This document shows, piece after piece, positions 14,109 to 51,400 of a DNA stretch of 60,000 nt (its first letter is position 1; each line of letters opens with the position of its first letter). This DNA is from Botryllus schlosseri (taxonomy: Eukaryota). The stretch is from NCBI GenBank assembly GCA_051294905.1, contig CM119372.1, positions 8,062,001-8,122,000 on the forward strand. The letters are read 5' to 3'. The notes below the pieces were generated by a model, which was not told the origin of the DNA, searched no databases, and was given only the letters and a program-made list of their open reading frames with translations. The translations under genes and the position numbers were made by a program.

Positions 14109-17100
14109 ATGTCTCCCGTCGTACTGGGCACTATTAGCCAACCTCGCACAATTGTTGTGACTCAAGGACTGTTCTCTGGCGATGAAAACAGAGGGTTTGT
14201 TGACAGAGGAGAACTTCCAAAATATGCAGTCGGCCTCTTTGAATCAAATGGATCGGGCCCAAGGAAAAGGAAACGTCTTACCCACCTTACCCCAGAAGAA
14301 AAAGTCATGAGAAGGTATACCAAATACCAGTACTGTACTGAACACTGCCAGTTAATATGATTTAGTGTTGGCTGCAATAACACTGTCGATACTTGAATTT
14401 CAGAAAATTGAAAAACAGAGTCGCTGCACAGACTGCCAGAGACCGCAAAAAAGCTAGAATGGAAACACTAGAAGATGCTGTAACAAAAATACATGAACAG
14501 GTATTTAAATTGACTGTTTACACAATGATATGTGATATAAATTGTAGGTAGTATTTACCTACTCACTACTCTACTGTTATGTTGAGTTCGATTAATGGTA
14601 TTGAATATGGGGTGTGTACTAAGCAGGATATTTTGTTAATGTCAACTTAACCAGCTACAGAGCAACTGTTTGTGATATACAGCTGCCATCGTGAAAATAC
14701 TATAATGTATTGTAGATGATATGGTTGTGGGAGGGACACTGTAAAACCCACAAAACCCGCAGAACCTGTAAAACCCGCAAAACCTGCAGGGTGTTTAGCA
14801 GGGTTTTGCGGGTGAATATCAGAGTTTTGCGGTTAACTAGAAGGGTTTTGCGCTTGAATAGAAGGGTTTTGCGGGTGAATAGCAGGGTTTTGCGGGTGTC
14901 TAGCAGGGTTTTGCGGTTAACTAGCAGGGTTTTGCGGGTGTTTAGCAGGGTTTTACAGGTGAATAATAGGGTTTTGCGGGTGACAAAGCGGGTTTTGCGG
15001 GTGTCTAACCGGGTGATAAAGCGGGTGATAAAGCGGGATTTGCGGGTGTTAAGCAGGGTTTTGCGGGTGACAAAGCGGATTTGCGGGTGTTTAGTATGGT
15101 TTTGCAGGTGAATAGCAGGGTTTTGCGGGTGACAAAGCGGATTTGCAAAACCTGTGAAACCCGCAAAAGCGAGGCGTATTTAGGTAATGTGTGTATCTCT
15201 TACAATACTGTCGCTGCATGGCCATAGATATCATAGATTAGTTATGGAATTCAACTATACGCAATGATAAGTACGCGAAACCCACAAAAGCAAGGCATAT
15301 TCAGGTAATGTGTATATATGTATCTTTTACATAGAAAACATAGATTAGGCATATGATCCAATTCAAGATTAAGCAACACTCTCAGATATTTCAGATGTCT
15401 AATGGAACATTCATATAATTTCAATCCATATTATATCATCCCAATCCGATCTTTCTCCTCTTGTTATCGTTTTCATTCCTTTTTCTTCGTGACTTTCATT
15501 TGAATTCATTTGGTTTTTTTCCAGAGCCAACTGGTGGCGCCTTTACAATTAGTCCTCCATCTGTTGATATAATAAAATTAGATTTTAATTTGGCCTGATT
15601 GAACCTATTCCGATAGTTATCTTTAGCTGCTTGACTTTTTCCAATCCAATCATTCGGGGTTTGCTGAAACTGCACATATTCACCGTACAGCCGGTAGCTT
15701 CCTACTCCAATTAAACTCTTTTTAATATCGCCAAACATGGCAGTAACTGGGTCGTATAACTCCTCTATTAATTTTGGCACTGACTCAATTTTTCTCTCTG
15801 TTACCCTTTTCATAACTGTACATAACTATACATACTTCATAACTATACACACATTGAATTAACTGAGTATGCCTTGCTTTTGTGGGTATTGCCATGTCTG
15901 ATACCTGCAAAGTCCTTCTAGTTAACCGCAAAACCCTGCTTCTTACCCTCAAAACCCTGCTATTCACCCACAAAACCCTGCTATTCACCTGCAAAACCCT
16001 ACTAAACACCCGCGAATCCGCTTTGTCACCCGCAAAACCCTGTTATTCACCCGCAAAACCCTGCTATTCACCTGCAATACCCTACTAAACACCCGCGAAT
16101 CCGCTTTGTGACCCGCAAAACCCTGCTAAACACCCGCAAAACCTGCTTTGTCACCCGCAAAACCCTGCTTTGTCACCCGCAAAACCCTGCTATTCACCCG
16201 CAAAACCCTGCTAAACACCCGCAAATCCGCTTTGTCACCCGCAAAACCCTGCTATTCACCCGCAAAACCCTGCTATTCACCCGCAAAACCCTTCTATTAA
16301 ACCCTTCTAGTTAACCGCAAAACTCTGATATTCACCCGCAAAACCCTGCTAAACACCCTGCAGGTTTTGCGGGTTTTACAGTGTCCCGTTGTGGGATTGT
16401 TTACTCGCACAAAATGTATAAATCCTGGATCAATTATTGTAGAAGTTTTGTCCATTGATCCAAGTTATCTCTTTTAGATGAATAAGTTGCTAGACGTCAA
16501 TTCGACGTTGCTCCAAAGAACGCATGATTTAGAGGAAGAAAACATGATTCTGCGCAGAAGATTAGGACTAGACTCGTCGCCTTCCATTCTCGAAGAGATA
16601 AGCAGGGAAGCGGCTATCATAAAGCAAGAAATTACCGATCAACTTCCAAACACTGATTCTCCAGTCGGGATCAAATCCGAAACATCAGGTACGGTACATT
16701 GGTTACTGGTTCATGTCGAAATGAAATGAATACAATCAACGTTCGATTATCTTCTGCTTTACATCCTGTGTGCATACAGCAGTTGGGTGTCTGATTCAAA
16801 GACTACTCTAAAGTCGTTTTTACAACTTCCTATCTCTTATTGTATCGTAATGTTGGTGTTTGTAGAAGGATGAATTATTAACCATTTACTCAAAAACTAA
16901 TCATTTAGGATACAGAACAGCATTACTCGAAACAATAACATAAATTCTTATTCAGATGATGAAGGATGTGTTCTGAAATCGTATGAGGAGCCCGCCGTCA
17001 TGAATGATCAGATCGGAATGAATGTTTCCACGCAAGAAGTTACCGTTTGTCGATCCCCCGTACCAGCAGCGTTCGGGGAACGCGTCAAGGAAAGACTTAT

Positions 17101-17832
17101 TCCTCAGCAGCAGGAAGCTGTCAAACCAGTGAAGCTGATCCACTCGGTAACGGAAAGCGAGGAAACATCATCCGTATCTGTGATTCGAATGGCGTTTCGG
17201 ACCTCCCCAAAGAAGAAGACACAGACATCACCGCCCTACTTAGGGCGCTGCAAGCCATCGATCCTCAACAATGCATCATTACGAAAGTCGATCAAAAAGG
17301 TATGTTTTCCCTTTAACAAGAATGGGCTTTGTGTGTGTGTAATCCCGAAGTCTGTTGTGGTAATTGACTTCCGCCATCTTGTGTTTGACCATGTTAATTC
17401 TGAAGTTTGGAGTTGAGGTTTTTCATGTAGGCTCGATATTAGCATTGGAATGTCTGATATTTATAAATTGTGTATGTGAAATTTTAATTAGTAGCTTGCT
17501 CGCGTATAACGAAGGATTTTTAGCAACCATAATACCTAAATTGAGTATGTCCTGTCTGTCATGTTTGTAAAACTGCTTCTTGAAGTGTAAACTGGACAGT
17601 TATTATCATTATGTAGCTGCTAAGTTTTGTGCCCCGAATGGATGATATTTGAAACAAACGACAATCGTTGCATCAAAGTAGGCTAAGCGGGTTTGATTGG
17701 CAATTCGCTCATTCTGAGAAAGTTTTCCAAACGCTCTCAAATTTCCAAGTCATGGTAACATTCAAGTCGTGCTCAACTTCATTTTGTGATATCTTCTCGC
17801 AGGAAATGCCGCTGGATCTTCGGATTCGTTAA
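14109..17832 (+). CDS. XBP1: XBP1 unspliced isoform XBP1u (about 295 aa)
   Basis: Same exons without the IRE1 excision: ..PVPAAFGERVKERLIPQQQEAV..LRKSIKK|EMPLDLRIR*, stop TAA at 17830-17832 in the last exon. Confidence 0.85.
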
Positions 17833-18380
17833 CCCAGGAGTGTGCAACGTTCAACGTCTTCAGTGACCACGGATATACCAAGCCCGCCACGGAGCAGTTG
17901 TTTTACACCAGCTGCAACAGCGGCGCCACATCTTCACAGGAACTTCTCAGGCCAACCGATTCAAAGAAGCTAACTGCCCTTTTTGGGGAGACCAAAGAAT
18001 GCACACAAGCCGACCTGTTCCCAGCCGACCTCATGGACGCGCTGCCCTACTGCGACGACAGCAAATTATCGGACAATTCTGAGGCTACCTCTGCAGATTT
18101 TGAAGCTGTTTTGGACAGTATTATTAATGGGGAAGGTTTTGGCGATCATACTGAAACGAAAACAGTCGCCATGAGCCCCGGCGCTAATTCAAATTTCTCA
18201 AACTCTGACATATATTCTGAGGACAGCGGTGTGTCTTTGTGCGGTTCCCCTTTATCTCTCGACACACCGTCGCCTCTGTACGAGAACACTGCAGATCCGT
18301 TTTTCAGCCCGGTAACAGATTGTAAAGACTTTCTGGAGGGGGATGAACTCGATTTGTTTCCACAACTTTCCGCCATGTAA
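14109..18380 (+). CDS. XBP1: X-box binding protein 1, IRE1-spliced isoform XBP1s (about 464 aa)
   Basis: Exons 14109-14314, 14404-14500, 16478-16688, 16956-17299 (minus 17067-17107) and 17803-18380. bZIP basic region [37 protein letters not shown]. After the 41-nt excision the frame reads PAAG..., contains FSDHGYTKP (cf. vertebrate DHIYTKP) and ends ELDLFPQLSAM* (cf. ELFPQL). Confidence 0.95.
14733..16387. mobile_element. Foldback/MULE-like non-autonomous transposon in XBP1 intron 2
   Basis: Termini GGGACACTGTAAAACCC/GGGTTTTACAGTGTCCC; exact 9-bp TSD GTTGTGGGA (14724-14732 and 16388-16396). Inverted arms (about 14733-15170 and 15900-16387) are built of tandem 21-24 bp units such as CAGGGTTTTGCGGGTGAATAG. 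Internal minus-strand ORF remnant at 15496-15813. Confidence 0.9.
17067..17107 (+). other. Unconventional (IRE1-excised) intron of XBP1, 41 nt
   Basis: Two 7-nt loops CAG^CAGC (17064-17070 and 17105-17111) matching CNG^CNG, closed by stems CCCCGtAC/GTtCGGGG and TTCCT/AGGAA. Excising 41 nt (2 mod 3) shifts into the frame carrying the conserved XBP1s C-terminus. Confidence 0.92.
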
Positions 18381-18488
18381 ATTTTTATTTCAGATCTCTA
18401 TGTTAAAAGGTGCAATATTGTAGCGTCCCTGGGCTGGTTCGGCGGTGTTGATGTCGTCGCGACATTGTGTGCATATTTTTGGCTTCTT

Positions 18489-18494
18489 AATAAA
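18489..18494 (+). terminator. Candidate polyadenylation signal for XBP1
   Basis: AATAAA about 110 nt after the XBP1s stop; not verified. Confidence 0.35.
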
Positions 18495-19143
18495 GAGTTT
18501 AATGTTCCACATACGTCTACCAATCTACTGTTGTGTGGGGCCGGGTGATCTCGTAGCACATATGCACGAAAGATCTGCTGTATTCTCGACGCGGCTGAGA
18601 AAGCGAAACGATAGCGGAAGATGTAGTTGGCAGGGTACTGCTGGGCAAAATCGAGTATCAATTTCATGAATTAATCGTTTTTCAGGTTTACAAGGAATAT
18701 GATGCGGGTTGAGCGCCATGTAAAATTTAGTGCAGAGGTCTCGAACATGCGGCCCGCGTCGGCATTTTCGAATTTTGAGTATTTGACAATATATTCAAGT
18801 ACCATATGTCATTTTTAGATGTAAGAAGTTGAAGTTCACCCTAAAACTACTATAAAAATCACTGAAATCTCAACAAACTTCACTTTCAAAAGCTAGCATA
18901 CGGCAGAAGATCAGCTATTACGTCACATTTCTAGTTCGTGAAGATTGAACATGACCCGTTGATGATTCGTGAATGAAAATTGTGAATTTGTTCGGTGCGA
19001 CCTTCCGTCAAATTACTCGATTTCGGTTTGACTGGGTAATCGAATGAAAACTAATCAATGTTGAAATCAGAGGACTTGTGATTCGGAACGGTGACTTGTA
19101 ATCCTACGGACGCAACAATCTATAAAACTGTGTTGGGGAATAG

Positions 19144-34498: not shown

Positions 34499-34560
34499 AT
34501 ATAAACTCATTTACATTCTAGTAGTAGACTATAGATAATACGAATTTTTAGCTCTACGAT

Positions 34561-35217
34561 ATGATCGCGTCGTACACTGGATCTCATTTTCCTCGTCGCG
34601 AGCTTTCTTTGCAAGAGCGGGAAAATTTGTATGGTGACCCGACCGTCAATTTCACAGGATTTTCGCCAAGACCTAAAAGCAGCATAGGAGTCCCGAAGAC
34701 AAATCCAAGTGCTATGAAGAAGATCGAGGTGCAGCACAGAGTGAGAACACCAGCTTCTGAATCAACAATTATATATCCCCTTCATACGTATCAAACTTGG
34801 GTGGATGTAGGAGATATTGAGCCTATACCAATAAAACAGCCAGATCCGGAGTATAACTCGAATGTGTGGCGAAACTTTAGTAAGTCCGAAGGGATCACCT
34901 GTAACGTGAAAGGGAGGGCTACTCCGGCCCTTATAGCTGCCATGTATCCGATACCGATTCCTCCCGCCTCCCGAATGGGAGACTTCACCTACGATAAATT
35001 CATCAAATACGGAGATGTGATAAAGTCAGATGAAGCTAAGCGGAAAAAGATAGTGGAAACAAAACGTCGGGTAGAGGAAATGAAACGACTCGAGATCATG
35101 ACGGCCGGACGAATACCCCCGACCGACATGTCTGGAAAAATCATAGCTCCATTACAGCTGCGAAGACTGCAAGCCCAGGGAAGGATTAAACACAGACCTC
35201 TTCCATCAGATGCGTGA
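34561..35217 (+). CDS. TEX52: Testis-expressed protein 52-like (218-aa uninterrupted ORF)
   Basis: Motifs TWVDVG, QPDPEYNSNVWR, PIPPASRMG and RIPPTDMSGKI parallel the TEX52 motifs I recall (TWLDV, QPDRPYDSNVWR, PIPPPSWMG, RAPPLDAQGNI). An acceptor-like TTTTTAG lies just 5' of the ATG, and GTGAGT at 35214 could be a donor extending the CDS. Confidence 0.75.
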   Translation: MIASYTGSHFPRRELSLQERENLYGDPTVNFTGFSPRPKSSIGVPKTNPSAMKKIEVQHRVRTPASESTIIYPLHTYQTWVDVGDIEPIPIKQPDPEYNSNVWRNFSKSEGITCNVKGRATPALIAAMYPIPIPPASRMGDFTYDKFIKYGDVIKSDEAKRKKIVETKRRVEEMKRLEIMTAGRIPPTDMSGKIIAPLQLRRLQAQGRIKHRPLPSDA

Positions 35218-48497: not shown

Positions 48498-51400
48498 TAG
48501 GGATGGTGTGAGCCTCTGAAAGGTTCAGGTTCGTGTGAACGCGAACCTTTTTGAAAGGTTCTGTGTGAACACGAACGTGAACCTCATGACGTCACGTGAC
48601 GTCATATTGCTAATTCGAACCCTATCCTTCGATGAAATGATAGCCTATATTAATATGCACGACACCTAGTGACGACTCGCGCAACATAACGTCACAATGC
48701 TGAAGTATATATTGACGTTTTAAACGTCGCCAAATATATCAACTGGGGCAATCAAATGATATAATAATCCCATAAAATCAATATCTTCCGCCTTTGCCAA
48801 CAATTTCGACGTGGACTTACCAGGGAATATAAGGAAAGGAAAGTGTATTTTTGTCTTTGATGTTTTTGCAGCATATACACCGAATCATGATATACATACA
48901 CTATAGAGACTGTAAGATGGAGCGACGACTCATTGTTCTAAGTTTAGATCCGTCACGCTTGACTTTGCGTAGTGAAATTCCGTTCGCGAAAGTCCGATTG
49001 TCCTATTTTACATGTAAAAGAATAGGCGATTTCGGAAATGCATGGATGAATTTGAGTGCCGAAAAAGGGTGGAAATATTCTGGCTAGACGTTTCAAACTT
49101 TGCATGTTACGAGGAAGCATCAATATGTTCTCACTAAAAAAATTTCACAACTGTCCTCCACCCAGAACACGTTTAAAATCAATTTCCCGCAATGCCTTAT
49201 TCAGCGATAAGTTCTCCGCGGCCGAATCCCGTAAACTCGTAGACAATGCTATGATTGATAAGGCTTTATGCGGTAATAATTAAGTGGCCGTTGAAAGCCG
49301 CTGACGCCGATACAAAACTGCCCAAACTATTTTCTGTGCATAAGCAACCGATGAAAAAAACGAATAGCCTACACGGAAAGCGGATAAAAAGAGCGCCGAA
49401 AAGATTATCAATACATCCAAAAGATCAATATCGTACACTGTTTTATCGGGCATTAGGCCTATGTTACATTGGAAGACTGTACTTGTTCGTTTTGACATCT
49501 TCTTTTCTGTTCACTAGGCTACATCGCACTGTCTTATATCCCGTTATACATTTCGCGTCTTTAGCAGTTAAAAATAATAGAACCGCCACGGCAATTATGG
49601 TCAGCAACTGCGCTATCCCTGGATGTACCTATGTGAACAATCCGCGTAGTGACCAATCTTGTAAGAGGTCCTTATTCACGGTACGAAGACCAGAGCTGTT
49701 AAGGAATGAAGCGGCCCAGATCACTCAGATCACTCACTCAGATCAAGAAACCAATGCACCAAACGATTCCAATTGATATATTTATTCATATAGAAAGAAA
49801 GGAAGATACCTTTCCCAAGAAAAGAGTTGCCAGAGACAGTGAGGCACAAAAATATTCCAGATTTGGTACAATCAGCTTCTAATTTGAACAGCAAAATTTG
49901 GGGTATAGCAGGCCTGATGGTTTGATATCACAGTAGATTCAACGGCTAGATATTGCTTCTTCATTTAAGGTAACTGGACATTCTATGAACTGAAAGGTAG
50001 ACTGCACATTGAGAAGCATGGTATGGAAGATGACACAGTGCCAATAATCAGGTTAAGTTAATGTTAATTTCATTACATTGATTGAATTGTCCCAACAGAC
50101 GTCACAACTTATTCCACTCCACTCATCCAATCCTTCAAAGCATTGGGAAATTTCCTCCTCGGTGATGGATTCCCAATCCTCCCACAATGATTCTTCGGCC
50201 ATGACTTTTACGAAAAAGTATCGGTTATAAAGGAATCAAAATTTCTGTGAAAGCATAATACTCAGAATTTTATTTCCGTTTTGCTGATTAAATAACAATT
50301 AGCCTACATGAAGATAGCTCGCTACTTATATAGTATCACAGCAATGTCCTCCAATAGTACTGTAAGTGACTTATATTTTCTGGTCGGCAAGTTAAAATAC
50401 ATACAGATTCTGCTGTATGACGCCTTCAAGAAGGACCATGATTTGGCATACCCACTTCGCCTGCAACGAAATGCCGTTTCATTTTCATCGCCTGCCCTTT
50501 TATTGTTATCTTCTATCATCATATAATACGCCACTATAATAGCTATTATATCATAAATCATCGCTGGTATTCACCGACCGTGCGCATTGCGCAGCGATAT
50601 ACCGGCATATTCATCGCATCGTACGGCAACAAACGCAAGACCGCCACGCAAGTATCCAAGATATTCACTAATCAGGCCAAACATATTAGGACGTCCAATT
50701 AGTCACAGAGTCCGTTATATGTATTCAACCTCCAATACTCCGACCCATTCCCATCGACAACTATGCATTAAACCAACAAAAACTCAACTTTCCACCCTCT
50801 GAATTCTATTTGGGATTAATAGTGGTACACGTAACAATGGGTAGCTCCCTACGCAAAGCGGAGCGTGACCAATCTAAAGGGAGTTGAAAATATTATTGCG
50901 CGCAGTGTAAATAGAGTAGATCAACTTATATAGATATTTCGGTATATCAATGCACTAACACCAGTATAATATAAAATATTTATAGTATTATGGGCAATAA
51001 TACCATAAATATCCATTTTTACAAGATAATTGCTGCAAAACCATGCAAACAAAATATGTTGCGGATGAATATTAATTAGGCATTTAAATCAGTCGTCACT
51101 CCATCCTACAGTCTCTATACATACACATGATGTGCATATGCCGCCGGCAAGGAAGATGCAGATATAGCCTTGTAGCAGTGTTGGGATGGCTCGAGTCATG
51201 ACTTGACTCAAATCAGACTCGAATCACCTTTTTCGTATGACAGACCGGAAAATGTATTCGGCATCCGAGTATTGCTACATTGATATTGATCATGGTGTGA
51301 ACCGGGTACATATGCTTGCTACTGATATTACCCCATTAACAAGATGTACAGCAGTAGCCAACACCTCAATTGCACCGATTTGGTTTTAATGATACAGTAA

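Follow-up and report, generated by a model that had tools for sequence, protein, structure and literature searches.

Evidence for a long, 41-nt IRE1-type intron in the XBP1 gene of the ascidian Botryllus schlosseri

The window analyzed here is a 60,000-nt stretch of the Botryllus schlosseri genome (assembly GCA_051294905.1, contig CM119372.1, positions 8,062,001–8,122,000). It contains a forward-strand gene model of five coding exons with GT-AG introns, which encodes an unspliced bZIP protein of 295 aa with its stop at 17832. Removal of 17067–17107 gives a 464-aa spliced model with a conserved XBP1s tail. The parts of the gene model are as follows, in window coordinates.

14109–14314, + strand: XBP1 coding exon 1, with the ATG and the start of the basic region (GT donor; 76% identity to Styela clava)
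14404–14500, + strand: exon 2, bZIP basic region (Pfam bZIP_1; last letters carried by reads entering exon 3)
16478–16688, + strand: exon 3, leucine zipper (read depth; GT-AG joint to exon 4)
16956–17299, + strand: exon 4, host of the unconventional intron, with two reading frames downstream of that intron (gene model, reads)
17803–18509, + strand: exon 5 through the poly(A) site, with the stop of the spliced frame at 18380 (172 reads on the GT-AG joint)
17809–17823, + strand: PLDLR motif near the end of the unspliced protein, stop codon 17830–17832 (translation; motif in 19 of 22 proteins)
17865–17885, + strand: DHGYTKP motif of the spliced frame (aligned with DHxYSK of the Styela, Clavelina, and Phallusia spliced forms)
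18354–18368, + strand: LFPQL end motif of the spliced frame (aligned; vertebrate and amphioxus spliced forms end likewise)

The identity of this gene is supported by several types of evidence. The match to the S. clava XBP1-like protein (P0007) covers all of exon 1, and the bZIP_1 domain in exon 2 scores 30.5 bits against a cut-off of 27.6. Among the further homologue matches are Phallusia and Ciona savignyi proteins annotated as X-box-binding protein 1. A 35-row tree based on the bZIP region only groups the window XBP1 with S. clava (support 96/84) and places the tunicate-type rows apart from the nine others (98/98). Because long branches meet in this tree, no order of events was inferred from it. 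When the spliced tail alone was used as a query among longer proteins, none of the 2093 candidates matched. The 3′ end of the transcript is marked by reads with poly(A) tails at 18509–18511.

Intron 2 of this gene contains a foldback-type element at about 14737–16383, built of a 21-bp unit that is repeated 16 and 18 times in two arrays of opposite orientation. The outer arms of this element (14766–14848 and 16299–16381) are perfect complements over 83 nt, so it is probably a young insertion. Elsewhere in the window, two other open frames exceed 170 aa, at 34552–35217 (+ strand) and 49255–49776 (− strand); the former resembles a coding exon belonging to a neighboring gene.

Exon 4 harbors two hairpins of the type cut by IRE1, which flank the piece removed in the spliced model and lie between the arms of a longer predicted stem.

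17056–17078, + strand: 5′ splice-site hairpin S2, loop CAGCAGC at 17064–17070, inferred cut after 17066 (sequence, pair probabilities, Rfam)
17067–17107, + strand: 41-nt non-spliceosomal intron (16 reads skip 41 nt; no GT-AG in 8 registers)
17100–17116, + strand: 3′ splice-site hairpin S3, loop CAGCAGC at 17105–17111, inferred cut after 17107 (sequence, pair probabilities)
17022–17045, + strand: 5′ arm of the long exon-exon stem S1, helices 17022–17029 and 17039–17045 (predicted; fold-back joints)
17145–17168, + strand: 3′ arm of the long S1 stem, 17145–17151 and 17161–17168 (predicted; fold-back joints)

The 5′ hairpin has arms at 17056–17063 and 17071–17078 that form seven pairs with one U-U mismatch (predicted pair probabilities of 0.8–0.98), and the 3′ hairpin has arms at 17100–17104 and 17112–17116 that form five pairs (predicted, about 0.6). 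An initial annotation, made from the sequence, had described these two 7-nt CAGCAGC loops on stems with cuts after 17066 and 17107, and all of its coordinates hold. This is the sole case of twin IRE1-type hairpins 14–120 nt apart on both strands of the 60 kb, in which single sites of this type number nine in all. Dinucleotide shuffles of exon 4 produced a twin site in 0 of 5000 trials. The segment 17015–17175 is predicted to fold at −56.1 kcal/mol (z = −4.07), and none of 200 shuffles was as good. For the short stretch 17045–17125 alone, the fold is not significant (z = −0.99; 26/200 shuffles), and the significance of the larger segment is attributable to the long bulged exon-exon stem. The Rfam model RF04247 (Hac1/Xbp1 intron) aligned all of its 72 positions at 17037–17137, with a 20-nt insertion within the intron. 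The resulting score is 24 bits (E = 0.027; 0.43 in a wider scan), short of the gathering threshold of 41 bits; the model penalizes the 20-nt insertion. The ES1 exon zipper is absent from the predicted minimum-energy fold of the spliced RNA.

Four runs carrying the same species label, with no known stress condition, were mapped to 16400–18700, and about 6% of the raw RNA run X23 was read. Reads lacking exactly 41 nt had been proposed as a check on the excision, and X23 provides 16 of them, which have 12 different starts, occur in both orientations, and join 17063 to 17105 with a short side of up to 74 letters. The ordinary joint between exons 4 and 5 is crossed by 172 reads in the same run, compared with these 16, and roughly one in ten X23 transcripts is spliced. 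The skip was seen in one of the four runs; the single-cell run X21, with a depth of about 4–10 there, has none. Only the unspliced form is present in X1 and X12, contig sets of a kind that drops rare forms. The exact cut lies inside a 7-nt repeat, beyond the resolution of the reads. In the portion of the literature available for comparison, minority junction reads at CAGCAGN loops were likewise accepted as evidence of splicing (PMC12530127).

At dozens of positions over 16400–18500, the X23 run carries fixed differences from the window, suggesting that it comes from a divergent lineage that bears this species label and that cryptic lineages are involved. Among the differences listed, none falls within 17011–17194; a further 55 stand outside this list, such that the intron sequence of X23 is established in part.

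Excision by the spliceosome rather than IRE1 is one alternative for the missing piece. A GT is present at 17071 and AGs end at 17107, 17110, and 17113; however, these sites would remove 37, 40, or 43 nt, none of which was seen, and the 41-nt skip has neither GT-AG nor GC-AG borders in any of its eight possible registers. We regard this alternative as extremely improbable. Another explanation is that reverse transcriptase switched templates between the two CAGCAGC repeats, which the fold would bring close together. The joint does lie in a 7-nt direct repeat and appears in one run only, and the same library contains fold-back chimeras in the same structure, with joints at 17021/17168, 17029/17160, and 17045/17144 (3–4 reads each). 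The turning points of these three joints coincide with the helices predicted for S1 (17022–17029/17161–17168 and 17039–17045/17145–17151), which gives the long stem indirect support. However, among the 13 direct repeats of at least 7 nt in the mapped exons, a skip occurs at one, the CAGCAGC pair; the 12 others, of 7–9 nt, have none among the skips listed, although some of these repeats may be broken by X23 differences. Moreover, the frame that the skip opens is conserved in four named ascidians, has a vertebrate-like end, and has no other join to the bZIP region in the gene model. Template switching is therefore a very improbable source of the 16 reads. The earlier expectation that a 41-nt excision (2 mod 3) would open the frame to DHGYTKP and LFPQL is borne out by the gene model and by the spliced-form proteins of relatives. 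Taken together, we hold with high confidence that the gene is the ascidian XBP1, that 17067–17107 is its IRE1 intron, and that this intron is truly spliced.

The gene has the general organization of the metazoan XBP1 system processed by IRE1alpha and RtcB (RF04247; available text of PMC4687415), namely a bZIP gene with two 7-nt CNG^CAGN loops on S2 and S3 and a long S1. Also shared are an intron length of 2 mod 3 and a frameshift into an extended tail that carries DHxYxK and LFPxL. The differences are the intron length, 41 nt in the window compared with 17–29 nt, and the ES1 element, which the window prediction lacks. In addition, the window loops begin with CAG, whereas the consensus given in PMC4687415 is C(C/U)G; CAG is also frequent among the invertebrate loci. 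The 34 species of that study are described as vertebrates, insects, and nematodes (Peschek et al., 2015, available text).

For comparison of intron lengths, unspliced proteins were used, in which the length equals 2 + 3n nt, with n codons separating the conserved PA from QQE. Anchoring on the exon-side QQ[E/D/V/K] reproduced the DNA values of 41 nt for the window and 44 nt for the close kin of the metagenome locus L001. The lengths in relatives are thus read from protein spacing, with L001 alone read from DNA. The set of tunicate-type unspliced proteins comprised 22 sequences, i.e., the window and 21 picked from the matches, after nine near-duplicate cluster members and the long-branch P0056 and P0076 were left out. 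Among these 22, the length is 41 nt in ten and 44 nt in seven, and 47, 50, and 26 nt are found once each; two are unreadable. A length of 41 nt was inferred for Ciona savignyi (P0034), C. intestinalis (P0035), and Phallusia mammillata (P0009). The DNA of L001 has the same design, with a 44-nt intron and LFPQL at the end of the spliced frame. Moreover, spliced-form proteins with the same junction have been deposited for Styela (P0007), Clavelina (P0010), Phallusia (P0011), and Ciona (P0036), and for Phallusia and C. intestinalis unspliced-form proteins are deposited as well. P0038 and P0040 retain the 5′ junction and end in PMDLS, with no QQ at the 3′ site; in these two the 3′ loop may have changed or the intron may have shifted.

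A strict twin-hairpin scan was applied to 80 XBP1-like metagenome loci, which are redundant and were chosen for similarity to tunicate queries. The scan called 20 nt in 25 loci, 23 nt in 13, and 17 nt in two, with 26 nt, 29 nt, an ambiguous 20/23, and an ambiguous 26/29 in one each, 44 nt in L001, and no call in 35. Loci outside tunicates range from 17 to 29 nt, with 20 nt being the commonest (45 loci with a call). The minimum usually cited for XBP1 introns is 19–20 nt. Two loci, L065 (582) and L076 (672), have candidate introns of 17 nt, and their spliced frames end in LFPSL.

These comparisons indicate that tunicates stand apart from the other sampled animals in intron length, and that the window is ordinary among ascidians, for which 41 nt is inferred from protein spacing to be the typical state. 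The initial annotation was right, as reads and structure attest, that the 41-nt IRE1-type intron is longer than usual, and a long intron was also found when orthologues were compared. The baseline of 23 and 26 nt that it used did not hold, as 20 nt is the commonest length, and the trait is not particular to B. schlosseri, with 41–50 nt read for most of the tunicate-type sequences. Likewise, its lineage-specific expansion by 15–18 nt did preserve the 2-mod-3 frameshift; the expansion is, however, far wider than one species and amounts to about 15–21 nt. The 41-nt length is therefore a clade-wide variant of a known device.

By analogy with the known pathway, ER stress would activate IRE1, which would cut each loop after its third base; RtcB would then ligate the exons, and the 464-aa form would activate unfolded-protein-response genes. 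The extra 15–21 nt would serve as a spacer between the two stems. The two splice sites are reported to be cut independently of each other (available text of PMC4687415), such that a longer spacer would be tolerated and the length would be free to drift by whole codons as long as it stays at 2 mod 3. This expansion is an old one, common to ascidians and related tunicates, with 41 nt as the main length and whole-codon shifts to 44–50 nt.

A function for the extra bases is compatible with this explanation. They may fold onto the intron arms, where they would either compete with the 3′ hairpin and raise the threshold for splicing or aid ejection of the intron. The free intron is predicted to form two hairpins that occupy both exon-pairing arms (−10.5 kcal/mol), about 35% of the precursor ensemble has an intronic AGGAA paired to the arm of the 3′ stem, and the L001 intron has an internal hairpin. 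In addition, 17 of the 20 readable tunicate-type proteins indicate 41–44 nt. However, the intron folds are not significant (z = −1.57; 15/200 shuffles) in the window and L001 alike, which are the two tunicate DNA sequences compared. The 3′ hairpin also has a probability of just 0.04–0.5 in six short-intron loci, such that long introns are not alone in having competing folds. On balance, a function of this type appears unlikely. Nor could a decoy-hairpin role for the extra bases be told apart from controls.

In yeast HAC1, pairing between the intron and the leader blocks translation. Fungal HAC1 shares with the window the twin-hairpin splice sites and an intron length that depends on the clade and is similar among related species (PMC6222058, available text). 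These fungal introns range from 19 to about 850 nt, and one of 41 nt would fall in the "small" class (<50 nt) of that study. Given this range and the independent cutting of the two sites (PMC6222058; PMC4687415, as available), the length by itself carries little weight.

The unspliced protein differs from known ones in its tail. Mammalian and Drosophila XBP1u are similar to the window in that the unspliced mRNA is an open frame for a short bZIP protein, but they have HR2 and a C-terminal pausing region, whereas the window has neither and ends with PLDLR instead (available text of PMC6624018 and PMC4138184). The arrest motif WG-x-Q-x-W-x-P is found in none of the 22 tunicate-type unspliced proteins, which are related, such that each shared trait is counted many times over. 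The motif is present in 42 other proteins, a control group defined by the motif itself, and in 53 of 78 closed-frame loci (L002–L080). It matches the residues described as optimal for arrest in human XBP1u, namely W249–H252, W256, and P258 (PMC6624018, available text). The motif is also strongly conserved in many marine invertebrate transcripts, a wider range than the mammal and fly cases. An HR2-like hydrophobic stretch is weak or absent in the tunicate-type unspliced proteins, for which the best 19-residue hydropathy is 0.35 in the window and 0.09–1.40 overall (median about 0.6), compared with 0.89–2.34 (median 1.65) in the motif-bearing group (n = 42). Intron length as the cause of the arrest-peptide loss is unsupported: P0022 has an intron of about 26 nt yet lacks the arrest peptide, and 24 non-tunicate loci also lack the motif, a few of them with low hydropathy.

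In place of the arrest motif, [PA]xDL[RST] ends 19 of the 22 tunicate-type unspliced proteins, mostly as PLDLR (P first in 17, A in two). None of the 42 other proteins and none of the 77 other loci have such an end, and among the tunicate-type proteins it is missing in Phallusia P0009, P0022, and P0037. The window and L001 share the PLDLR-type motif in the unspliced frame but differ in the spliced frame that overlaps it, a pattern indicative of selection acting on the unspliced protein. Sites of the PXDLS type recruit the co-repressor CtBP. The PLDLR end resembles these and may be regarded as a putative CtBP site. Since the arrest peptide and most HR2 hydrophobicity are lost from unspliced tunicate XBP1, delivery of its mRNA to IRE1 probably follows a different path, which may be less efficient. 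Drosophila XBP1 without HR2 and the pausing region is reported to splice still, at a lower level (PMC4138184, available text). A rewired switch may be proposed from these sequences, in which tunicates dropped HR2 and the arrest tail, the unspliced form would be a bZIP repressor recruiting CtBP through its PLDLR-type end, removal of the 41–50-nt intron would flip this repressor to an activator, and the mRNA would reach IRE1 without the nascent chain. This proposal is tentative, with the chances leaning somewhat against it.

The literature searched, which mostly excludes subscription journals, yielded no description of an XBP1 intron that is 41 nt long or comes from a tunicate, of arrest-peptide loss in tunicates, or of a link between XBP1u and CtBP. 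The available portions of PMC4891664, PMC8528705, and PMC13149111 contain nothing on intron length. The Ciona robusta Xbp1 is an orthologue, expressed in notochord and epidermis downstream of Brachyury (Wu et al., 2022; PMC8803312). The available text of that study holds nothing on an unconventional intron, its length, or the form encoded by the "full-length" cDNA, and the word "unspliced" has 0 occurrences in it. Chances are about even that the long intron has been noticed before in Ciona. A 2011 survey by Hooks and Griffiths-Jones reportedly covered about 150 genomes and called 20–26 nt typical; Ciona may well be among these genomes.

For ascidian biology, these results locate the switch, which automated models built on 20–26 nt miss, as the Rfam score below threshold illustrates. 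The loss of the tail and the conserved PLDLR end weigh more than the intron length. Tunicates, which of all invertebrates are most closely related to vertebrates, look like a natural knock-out of the targeting tail. Ciona is an easily electroporated model in which Xbp1 shapes the notochord (PMC8803312, available text). If the unspliced form is a repressor, experiments in Ciona with "full-length" and truncated constructs would need to be re-read.
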